A DNA stretch of 61,951 bases from an uncultured Candidatus Saccharibacteria bacterium (GTDB lineage: Bacteria; Patescibacteriota; Minisyncoccia; UBA6257; UBA9933): contig CAYVOL010000004.1 in assembly GCA_964453135.1 (NCBI GenBank), positions 1-61,951 on the forward strand, in the 5' to 3' direction. Below are positions 4,722 to 5,978 of this stretch, piece by piece. A program made the position numbers and the translations under genes. Under the pieces are notes generated by a model. The model was not told the origin of the DNA. It was given only the letters and a program-made list of their open reading frames with translations, and did no database searches. Every line of letters starts with the position of its first letter. Within the stretch, counting starts at the first letter, position 1.

Positions 4722-5978
4722 ATGTTGCGATATTTAATCAGTGAAATGCTTGCGGGGTTTGTTGGGGCAGTTGCCGCGCTTGTTATTATAGTTCAGTTTT
4801 TGAAACAGCCGGCTGGCCGCGCGTTATTACAATTTATTAAAAAGCCCGTGGTCGCGGTTTCTTTGATTGTCTTGATAATCGCGTTTTTCTGGGGACTGCT
4901 TTCCAATAGGACATATCCGCCGAGTTTCGCGATGCCGCCGTTTATGCATTCTAACGCTCCGGGCGCAATGCCCCCCTCCATTCCTTTTGGAAATTTAATT
5001 GAATTTTTTAAAGATAGAAATAGATTTGAAATGGTAAGCGATATTAGCGAGGACCCGAACGCCGCGCCGAAAGAAGCGCAAAAGCCGGACGCCGACGGCA
5101 TTGTGCGCATTCATCTGACTGCCAAAGAAGTTATTTCCGAAGTCGCGCCGGGAATCTATTTCAATTACTGGACTTATAACGGGAAAGTTCCCGGTCCGAT
5201 GTTGCGCGTGAAAGAGGGAGATACAGTGGAAGTTTCATTAACCAATGATCCGTCAAGTTTGCACGAGCATAACATTGATTTGCACGCCGTGACCGGTCCC
5301 GGCGGCGGCGGGTCTGTTACCAAAGCCGCTCCCGGCGAAACAAAAACATTCCGCTGGAAAGCGCTGGCTCCCGGGCTTTATATTTATCACTGCGCCGTGC
5401 CTAATGTCAGTACGCATAATTCCCACGGCCAGTACGGGCTTATTCTTGTTGAGCCGAAGAGTGGGCTTCCTAAAGTGGATAAAGAATTTTATGTGGTACA
5501 GGGAGAACTTTATACTGCTGGACAACTTGGCAAAAAGGGGCTGGTTTCTTTTGATCCGCAGGCGCTTATTGACGGAAATCCGAATTACGTCGTTTTTAAC
5601 GGCAAAGTGGAAAGCGCGCCGCGCATGCGCGCCAAAGTGGGGGACACAATCAGAATGTATGTGGGCAACGGCGGCGTTAATTTGATTTCTTCTTTTCATA
5701 TCATCGGAGAAATTTTTGACACGGTTTATCCGAACGCGAGCATCGGAGGGGCAATGGAGAAAAACACGCAAGTGGCGCAAGTGCTTCCCGGCGGAGCGAG
5801 CATTGTTGAATTTAAGCTGGACGTGCCCGGAAAATATTTGCTGGTTGACCACGCTTTGGCGCGGATGAACAAAGGCGCTTGGGCGGTTCTTGACGTAAGC
5901 GGAAGCGAAAATAAAGATATTTTTTCTTCTGTTTCGGCAACCTCTTCTCCTTCTTCGGACAAAATGACGAAGATGTAA
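4722..5978 (+). CDS. nirK: Copper-containing nitrite reductase (AniA/NirK type) with N-terminal membrane segments
   Basis: HNIDLH (His183/Asp186/His188), YHC (His223/Cys224), His232, [11 protein letters not shown] and LVDH. The axial Met position is Gln237. Confidence 0.9.
   Translation: [418 protein letters not shown]

Follow-up and report, generated by a model that had tools for sequence, protein, structure and literature searches.

How is a copper nitrite reductase supplied with electrons when the axial ligand of its electron-entry site is changed, in a bacterium that offers few of the usual electron donors? The textbook type-1 copper of NirK, which is among the best-studied redox metalloenzymes, is bound by two histidines, a cysteine and a methionine (His2-Cys-Met). 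Patescibacteria are not known to have cytochrome c maturation or quinone chains. The question is raised by nirK (positions 4722-5978, forward strand), a gene for a membrane-anchored, two-domain protein of 418 amino acids (aa) with glutamine at the axial position, in a 61,951-nucleotide stretch of DNA from an uncultured Candidatus Saccharibacteria bacterium (assembly GCA_964453135.1, contig CAYVOL010000004.1; hereafter the window). The genome comprises 613 kb in 6 contigs and is 95% complete. The best explanation as a whole, and in our judgement probably the correct one, is a real and selected Gln-type copper site with a lowered potential and an unusual, low-potential donor route.

The gene encodes a genuine NirK

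The product of nirK is a true copper nitrite reductase of the NirK type and belongs to the AniA-like class II (C-x7-H). It scores 307.7 bits against the TIGR02376 equivalog hidden Markov model (HMM; cut-off 296.3), or 308.5 bits in a search of the whole genome, and contains the two multicopper-oxidase cupredoxin domains PF07732 and PF07731. Its closest solved relative in HMMER searches is AniA (1kbv/5tb7, E 1.5e-96). The C-x7-H-x4-axial spacing, a gap-free alignment on 1kbv and a position in the tree among C-x7-H sequences place it in class II. An initial AlphaFold2 (AF2) run on 42 clade-only sequences gave a predicted local distance difference test score (pLDDT) of 66, with the type-1 loop below 50, and was replaced by a run on a 143-sequence alignment covering three clades. 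The second model, a monomer without copper, has a mean pLDDT of 82.7 and a predicted template-modelling score (pTM) of 0.83; Foldseek matched it to 6the with a template-modelling (TM) score of 0.94 and a root-mean-square deviation of 2.0 Å, and to AniA with a TM score of 0.91. A two-domain multicopper oxidase or laccase was considered and rejected, as the motif reads HCA rather than HCH and the laccase, CueO and ascorbate oxidase HMMs score far under their cut-offs. Genuine HCH..L relatives within the phylum are just 32-33% identical to the window NirK.

Copper ligands and catalytic residues were assigned by alignment with AniA; all coordinates within nirK are on the forward strand. The type-1 set consists of His183, Cys224 and His232, with Gln237 at the axial position, and the type-2 set of His188, His223 and His377. 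The sensing loop (5262-5285) reads H181-E-H183-N-I-D186-L-H188 and carries type-1 His183 (codon 5268-5270), catalytic Asp186 and type-2 His188; H181, H183, D186 and H188 are invariant in an alignment of 42 Gln-type sequences (A1). The Cys-His bridge and type-1 loop (5388-5432) run H223-C224-x7-H232-N233-S-H235-G-Q237, in which type-2 His223 adjoins type-1 Cys224. Catalytic His326 (HisCAT) and Ile328 (IleCAT; together 5697-5705) align with the AniA stretch ssfhvigeifd and are invariant in alignments A1 and A2. His377 (5850-5852), the third type-2 ligand, lies in lvdhal, which falls on AniA lvdhsi, and is invariant in A2. In known NirK trimers this third histidine is supplied by the neighbouring subunit. 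The type-2 set is invariant in 143 sequences, and Asp186, His326 and Ile328 are all present, which bears out the original prediction that the other copper ligands and the catalytic Asp/His are intact. Since the type-2 site is canonical, reduction of nitrite to nitric oxide (NO) would be the expected chemistry.

Glutamine occupies the axial position

Gln237 (codon CAG, 5430-5432) falls on the axial Met of AniA within a 24-residue stretch of the loop that HMMER aligns gap-free, and the spacing C-x7-H-x4-Q is the same as in C-x7-H-x4-M. The classical NirK type-1 set His-Cys-His-Met is therefore departed from at a single place: H183, C224 and H232 are present, and Met has become Q237. The original prediction had read the protein in this way, and its coordinates (5268 and 5430-5432) proved exact. 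The departure does not exclude NirK membership, as the accepted NirK of Thermus scotoductus (TsNirK) departs likewise (PMC6400189). Given the identical register of the loop and the TsNirK precedent, we infer that the O-epsilon of Gln237 would bind the type-1 copper, as it does in TsNirK and stellacyanin.

Other methionines were considered for the axial role. M160, the sole Met of cupredoxin domain I, was rejected; it aligns with a Met that AniA has besides its axial Met, and Met-type NirKs retain it too. Position 226 was also rejected, being commonly Met in the clade, yet Val in the window and Thr in others. The linker methionines 71, 75 and 83, formally candidate alternative ligands, are not placed by the AF2 model.

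Upstream of the core, an N-terminal two-helix membrane hairpin (4746-4901) was read from the sequence at about residues 9-26 and 42-60, around a K/R-rich loop (K28, R33, K40 and K41). The first AF2 model put the helices at residues 2-28 and 42-62, and the hairpin is kept across A1. By the positive-inside rule the loop would be cytoplasmic and the catalytic domain outside. The hairpin is followed by a juxtamembrane Met/His-rich linker (4914-4985), Y65-P-P-x-F-A-M71-P-x-F-M75-H76-S-(H/N)78-A-P-G...I87-P88, whose residues are invariant or nearly so in A1; the window has Asn78 in place of the last His. Its pLDDT is below 50 in both AF2 models. At the other end of the protein, most Gln-type NirKs in A1 finish in His/Met-rich tails (...MDMH, HSHEH, ENHTH) that may serve in copper capture; the window protein ends in ...SDKMTKM.

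The glutamine is authentic and under selection

Logan contigs from three runs of the same mine-drainage sample, assembled separately, span 5100-5600 and show no difference at 5430-5432. Glutamine is found in 120 of the 120 nearest 90%-identity clusters, which are 68-80% identical to the window protein. At homologous loci its codon is CAG or CAA and the flanking codons carry many synonymous changes; every locus checked encodes Gln. Because the residue is kept through such changes, it must be held by selection. A sequencing or assembly artefact, or a decaying pseudogene, could appeal to the general caution that is due to metagenome-assembled genomes; it is refuted by the concordance of three assemblies, by the intact frame with all other catalytic residues present, and by the same Gln in hundreds of independent genomes, and we give it practically no chance. 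Gln237 is thus confirmed far beyond chance or error. The original prediction had argued against a sequencing error from the codon alone; the three assemblies and the homologues, all with Gln, agree with it.

Gln-type NirKs form one clade with a Met-type sister

In an exhaustive HMMER search, the axial residue was readable in 135 of the best 150 representatives at 50% identity: Met in 125, Gln in 5, Leu in 4 and Ala in 1. When 117 core domains were placed in a maximum-likelihood tree, the 12 Gln rows related to the window fell into one group, with a support of 99 in the Shimodaira-Hasegawa-like approximate likelihood-ratio test (SH-aLRT); the sister of this group is the Met-bearing P0123 (support 92). 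Whether Gln defines a clade, the alignment check proposed with the original prediction, is thereby answered in the affirmative. A thirteenth Gln sequence, P0147 (locus L117), was placed elsewhere, as sister to a Leu sequence; to judge by an NMD3 gene on its contig, P0147 is probably archaeal. As P0147, TsNirK and the window clade are separately placed, Gln arose at least three times in the family. The axial departures from Met seen among NirK-like proteins, apart from the window clade, include Leu in P0127, P0132, P0204 and P0247, Ala in P0152 and Gln in P0147.

When one genome per species was scanned, at least 259 species-level genomes encoded a relative bearing NVSTHNSH and VDHALARM, two motifs of the clade. 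Almost all of the carriers are labelled Patescibacteria. The 80 best of the 259 bear the labels Paceibacterota, Nomura-, Kaiser-, Azam-, Peregrini-, Levyi- and Woesebacteria, or generic labels of the candidate phyla radiation (CPR). Even samples of 401 genomes each from the phylum and from the class contained full-length relatives of at least 60% identity in 3 and about 8 genomes, respectively, with the Gln motif read directly in three of these relatives, and Gln-type genes are present in several families of the phylum. On these sequence comparisons, Gln is a fixed, selected trait of a single monophyletic clade with a wide distribution in Patescibacteria. Our search of the literature on CPR NirK found no paper noting Gln there. 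The CPR nirK that Danczak et al. 2017 (PMC5581439) described may belong to the Met-type or to the Gln clade; later genome surveys of CPR merely count nirK.

Searching with P0123 retrieved 120 CPR NirKs, including those of Doudna-, Zambryski-, Wolfe- and Yonathbacteria, that are 55-59% identical to the window NirK. The loop of this Met-type clade reads HCAHPNVA.HMAHG(M/L)YG, the axial residue being Met in 112 of the 120 and Leu in the other 8. Its members share with the window NirK the membrane anchor, the reduced genomes, His181 and His235; unlike the window protein, they have 'QYPFFLKTFGP...' in place of the Met/His linker. Comparison of both CPR clades and a cytochrome-c-fused outgroup yielded four marker positions in the loop: 226 (Met in the Gln clade, Val in the window; His or Thr elsewhere), 230 (Ser against Ala or Gly), 233 (Asn against Met, Ile or Val) and 237 (Gln against Met). 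The residue after the exposed type-1 His is thus Asn in the window and hydrophobic in other NirKs, so that the docking surface is altered too. A Met-type NirK domain was also seen within frames of about 1300 aa at three loci of one Patescibacteria family (L008, L009 and L010 in G182, G340 and G301), where it is 54% identical over residues 182-406.

A lowered type-1 potential is expected

In rusticyanin, the M148Q substitution lowers the potential from 667 mV in the wild type to 563 mV, a drop of about 100 mV; the type-1 copper of AcNiR lies at 240 mV and stellacyanins at about 200-265 mV (PMC11881046). By analogy, the His2-Cys-Gln site would lie about 100 mV under that of a Met-type NirK, near +140 mV. 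A lowering of this kind would favour electron transfer from type-1 to type-2 copper, and it would make reduction by azurin, pseudoazurin or cytochrome c551 uphill, which would rule out the usual high-potential donors.

The effect of the substitution might instead be near-neutral, the glutamine ligating the copper or filling the pocket while the second sphere keeps a normal potential, an ordinary or host donor serves the enzyme, and conservation reflects structural lock-in. The Met-type sister has the same anchored architecture in similar genomes that are also without obvious donors, sporadic Leu and Ala variants point to a position tolerant of change, and TsNirK took electrons from a heterologous pseudoazurin, if about 7 times more slowly (PMC6400189). 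Set against this are the invariance of Gln in at least 120 clusters through synonymous codon changes, its change together with three type-1-loop positions and a new linker motif, and the fact that each cited published Met-to-Gln swap drops the potential by about 100 mV. We regard a near-neutral substitution as improbable. A lowered potential together with an unconventional donor, by analogy with the published substitutions, would be the well-motivated inference.

Candidate electron donors

No match to the cupredoxin family PF00127 was found in the 95%-complete genome, and its two weak Cupredoxin_1 (PF13473) matches were both resolved as other than type-1 donors. A 131-aa cupredoxin-fold protein was rejected as donor since it matches the Cu(I) chaperone CupA (2mry/4f2e, E 3e-6, C...C-x-M-x-M), and a 162-aa amicyanin-like protein because its Cys, His and Met ligands are replaced by Asn, Asn and Arg. 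The CupA-like gene adjoins those of CopA and HMA-DsbD_2 in a three-gene unit (contig C3, 104621-108576, reverse strand), likely a copper supply or resistance route for the extracytoplasmic NirK; the unit recurs 4.5 kb from nirK at L013. The amicyanin-like protein (contig C1, 65483-66796, reverse strand) is membrane-anchored and retains two Cys and several His, and an open reading frame (ORF) beside its gene encodes a putative VKOR-like membrane protein. No cytochrome c domain was found in the genome, although no search aimed at the cytochrome c families was made; CxxCH motifs number 12, mostly isolated, in 11 ORFs (one with two).

A different class of candidate is encoded on the forward strand of the window. 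An ECF sigma gene (24577-25146) lies upstream of a gene for a 431-aa NOX/ferric-reductase-like membrane flavocytochrome (25224-26519; PF01794, PF08022 and PF00175), a candidate for transmembrane electron input. Only 11 bp further on is a gene for a membrane-anchored cytochrome b5-like protein of 153 aa (26530-26991; PF00173, 91 bits), a candidate donor with HPGG and a second His. Together, the genes at 24577-26991 would provide a full conduit for electrons from NAD(P)H to the outside, in a 613-kb genome regarded as devoid of electron transport. A b-type haem domain needs no cytochrome c maturation system.

Links between b5 domains and NirK recur beyond the window. In the sister lineage (P0123 and P0295-P0297) the NirK core is preceded by a fused b5 domain, which follows the membrane anchor; the same fusion occurs in genome G461 (C10:7544-8716). 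Because it is fused to the sister NirK, this b5 domain must operate on the outer face of the membrane, together with the NirK core. A gene for a 698-aa protein that joins an N-terminal multi-pass membrane domain, a b5 domain (PF00173, 34.7 bits) and a cytochrome-d1 propeller (PF02239, 232 bits) lies directly upstream of Gln-type nirK at L019 (2569-4665), L022 (214-2367), L036 (3216-5312) and L041 (1696-3792), and in genome G722 a homologue (L116:2155-4254) precedes a truncated nirK (a 278-aa frame) by about 1.7 kb. Of 50 Gln-type genomes, 23 contain PF00173, versus 45 of 401 genomes of the class, an approximately four-fold difference (odds ratio 6.7, Fisher p 2e-8, uncorrected for phylogeny). 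The b5-d1 gene sits between a Cys-rich ArsR regulator and the Gln-type nirK, and its product looks like a cd1-type protein (with a NirS/NirN/NirF-type propeller) in which b5 replaces the cytochrome c domain. A literature search for cytochrome b5 in CPR found nothing.

In the proposed mechanism, the catalytic domain would stand outside the membrane and convert nitrite to NO at its canonical type-2 site, with electrons arriving by a low-potential route independent of cytochrome c. The candidate chain in the window would run from cytoplasmic NAD(P)H through the NOX-like flavocytochrome (25224-26519) and the anchored cytochrome b5 (26530-26991) to the type-1 copper. More generally, Patescibacteria might run an extracytoplasmic b-haem chain, from NAD(P)H through NOX-like proteins to b5 modules that are free, fused to NirK or fused to a cd1 propeller, with the Gln type-1 copper tuned to its donor. 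We put this general scheme forward as a speculative possibility, with the balance of probability against it.

Several observations weigh against the explanation that we prefer. A b5 domain is absent from over half of the Gln-type genomes, and in the class sample b5 is found in 2 of 8 Gln-type, 5 of 33 NirK-bearing and 40 of 368 other genomes. The NOX-b5 adjacency recurs in just 2 of 17 other small-b5 loci of Gln-type genomes (L099 and L104), and in the window the b5 gene lies 20 kb from nirK. The neighbourhood of nirK is not conserved either, with no universal neighbour among 80 loci. Second-sphere changes could offset the effect of the axial ligand on the potential, and in TsNirK the Gln site is an internal relay beneath an extra cupredoxin domain rather than an entry site. 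With b5 in 23 of 50 Gln-type genomes, and in 2 of the 8 in the class sample, we rejected it as a universal donor while retaining it as the best candidate class; nor do we regard the NOX-b5 pair, which recurs at 2 of 17 loci, as a module conserved among Gln-type genomes. The NOX-b5 donor step is the weakest of the proposal and cannot apply clade-wide. A b-type haem protein remains the best candidate donor; it is ranked first and is not established.

The absence of b5 from more than half of the Gln-type genomes speaks also for a donor without haem: a thiol relay (DsbD_2/CcdA-type, with an extracytoplasmic thioredoxin fold), the protein's own hairpin and Met/His motif, or a reductant from the host or environment. 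The Met/His linker is specific to the Gln clade, and the window genome has HMA-DsbD_2 and CupA-like genes, which at 6 of 80 loci are found close to nirK. On the other side, the CupA-like protein matches a Cu(I) chaperone and not a redox carrier, and we found no precedent for thiol-to-type-1-copper transfer. A non-haem donor seems to us unlikely, if a serious contender. The original prediction that the enzyme may need a lower-potential donor than usual therefore stands in part: a lowered potential and an unusual donor would fit the published Met-to-Gln data, the donor content of the genome and the b5 links, and the lack of b5 in more than half of the Gln-type genomes counts against b5 as the general donor.

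The neighbourhood of nirK

Neighbours were counted at 80 species-level loci (L018-L097), or 81 when the window is included. The most frequent are an ECF-S-like membrane protein (21 of 80), a class II (B12) ribonucleotide reductase (RNR; 20 of 80), a PNPOx-like protein of about 129 aa (14 of 80) and a Cys-rich ArsR regulator (13 of 80), followed by DUF4430 and cob(I)alamin adenosyltransferase (11 of 80 each) and by HMA-DsbD_2 and a CupA-like chaperone (6 of 80 each). A P1B ATPase with a 'CPH' motif is found at 12 loci, among them the start of the window. There, at the window edge, the C-terminal part of a P-type ATPase is encoded (33-902, forward strand), with a HAD-type Hydrolase domain as its sole Pfam match; it clusters with P1B ATPases that bear the 'CPH' motif and a YHS/TRASH-like N-terminus. 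The immediate neighbours of nirK in the window, both on the forward strand, are an MsrB-MsrA fusion upstream (3730-4632; PF01641 and PF01625) and a peroxiredoxin (AhpC/TSA) downstream (6068-6631; PF00578). These were rejected as conserved partners, being found at 3 of 81 and 1 of 81 loci, respectively; none of the 80 other loci has a peroxiredoxin beside nirK. The gene acts as a stand-alone unit.

The setting in the window bears on whether the enzyme might serve in envelope stress defence or copper handling, by reducing O2 or superoxide or by oxidizing Cu(I) bound to Met/His motifs, with nitrite or O2 as acceptor. The position of nirK between MsrB-MsrA and peroxiredoxin genes is consistent with such a role, as are the 'CPH' ATPase near nirK (12 of 81 loci), the resemblance of the Met/His linkers and C-terminal tails to copper-binding motifs, and the origin of the sample from mine drainage; copper nitrite reductases (CuNiRs) are reported to have oxidase and superoxide dismutase-like side activities (PMC5755574). 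It must be reconciled with a type-2 site that is fully canonical for nitrite and an equivalog HMM score above the cut-off, with the lack of conservation of the Msr and peroxiredoxin neighbours, and with a lower type-1 potential, which would hinder oxidation of Cu(I). We judge a stress or copper function to be quite improbable, and nitrite reduction at a Gln-type site remains the preferred reading.

Genes for ribonucleotide reductases adjoin nirK unusually often: at about 20 loci the class II B12 enzyme is found with an ECF-S-like transporter and cob(I)alamin adenosyltransferase, and at L093 and L094 nirK follows NrdD-NrdG and an FNR-like flavoprotein. A common regulon, anaerobic or NO-responsive and controlled by the Cys-rich ArsR regulator, might account for this proximity. 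Further downstream in the window, 6923-8095 (forward strand) encodes a Peptidase_A4-domain protein (eqolisin/scytalidoglutamic peptidase), either secreted or anchored, whose gene was found beside nirK at no other locus; the family is best known from fungi. The guanine-cytosine (GC) content of nirK, 0.484, is slightly higher than the 0.41-0.44 of its neighbours. A promoter and terminator scan around nirK gave signals at background level, and none of the RNA runs searched for nirK contained the gene.

Significance

The Gln clade is a large natural group, of hundreds of species, with what would be a stellacyanin-like His2-Cys-Gln entry site on an otherwise canonical two-domain NirK. With its Met-type sister it offers a natural experiment on the tuning of potential by the axial ligand, on gating between type-1 and type-2 copper and on partner choice. 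It sharpens the question, for CPR, of what supplies electrons to a nitrite reductase in organisms that have no cytochromes c, quinones or respiratory complexes, and of why such an enzyme is retained. In annotation pipelines and earlier publications these genes pass for ordinary nirK with 'all ligands conserved', and the denitrification potential inferred from them may need re-examination. If the b-haem chain were true, it would provide a nitrite-dependent electron sink for an otherwise fermentative episymbiont.

Comparison with known systems

AniA of Neisseria gonorrhoeae (1kbv, 5tb7 and 5ue6) is about 50% identical to the window NirK over the core and shares with it the length of the C-x7-H-x4-X loop, the type-2 ligands and the catalytic trio Asp, His and Ile. 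It too is tethered to the membrane, on the extracytoplasmic side. It differs from the window protein in its axial Met, in being anchored as a lipoprotein and not by a two-helix hairpin, in having Ile/Val instead of Asn after the type-1 His, and in the absence of a Met/His juxtamembrane motif. Fusion of a donor to NirK has precedents in RpNiR and PhNiR, which are fused to cytochrome c, and in HdNiR, fused to a cupredoxin. The b5-NirK of the sister lineage is analogous, the module that is fused or neighbouring in CPR being a b5 haem domain; the window NirK itself has no fused partner.

The first-sphere ligand set His2-Cys-Gln proposed for the window NirK is that of stellacyanin and of the variants rusticyanin M148Q, azurin M121Q and AcNiR M150Q, the last of which is mentioned in bioRxiv 10.1101/2022.04.07.487406; the expectation of a lowered potential derives from these proteins. 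These are single-domain carriers or laboratory mutants, unlike the natural clade of enzymes described here.

The natural precedent is TsNirK of T. scotoductus SA-01 (PDB 6hbe; Opperman et al. 2019), the first NirK found with a His2-Cys-Gln type-1 copper, in which the O-epsilon of Gln130 is the apical ligand of a blue, stellacyanin-like site and which reduces nitrite (PMC6400189). This crystallographic example makes the variant less novel than the original prediction implied. An axial Gln on the core type-1 copper is common to TsNirK (Gln130) and the window protein (Q237), and the two are otherwise distant: TsNirK scores 112.9 bits in HMMER, versus 326.9 for AniA. It has three domains, with a C-terminal cupredoxin that carries a second type-1 copper and lies over the Gln site, whereas the window protein ends about 15 residues past the core; the Gln site that is an internal relay in TsNirK would be an entry site here. 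The type-1 loop is C-x9-H in TsNirK and C-x7-H in the window, and the sensing loop reads His-Gly-Leu-Ser-Ile-His with a catalytic Ser in the former and H-N-I-D-L-H with Asp in the latter. TsNirK is the only NirK for which His2-Cys-Gln has been shown experimentally and, as judged from the tree and the alignments, Gln arose independently in the window clade. What was already known is thus the His2-Cys-Gln site of TsNirK; what is new here is a Gln clade independent of it, on a canonical two-domain enzyme.

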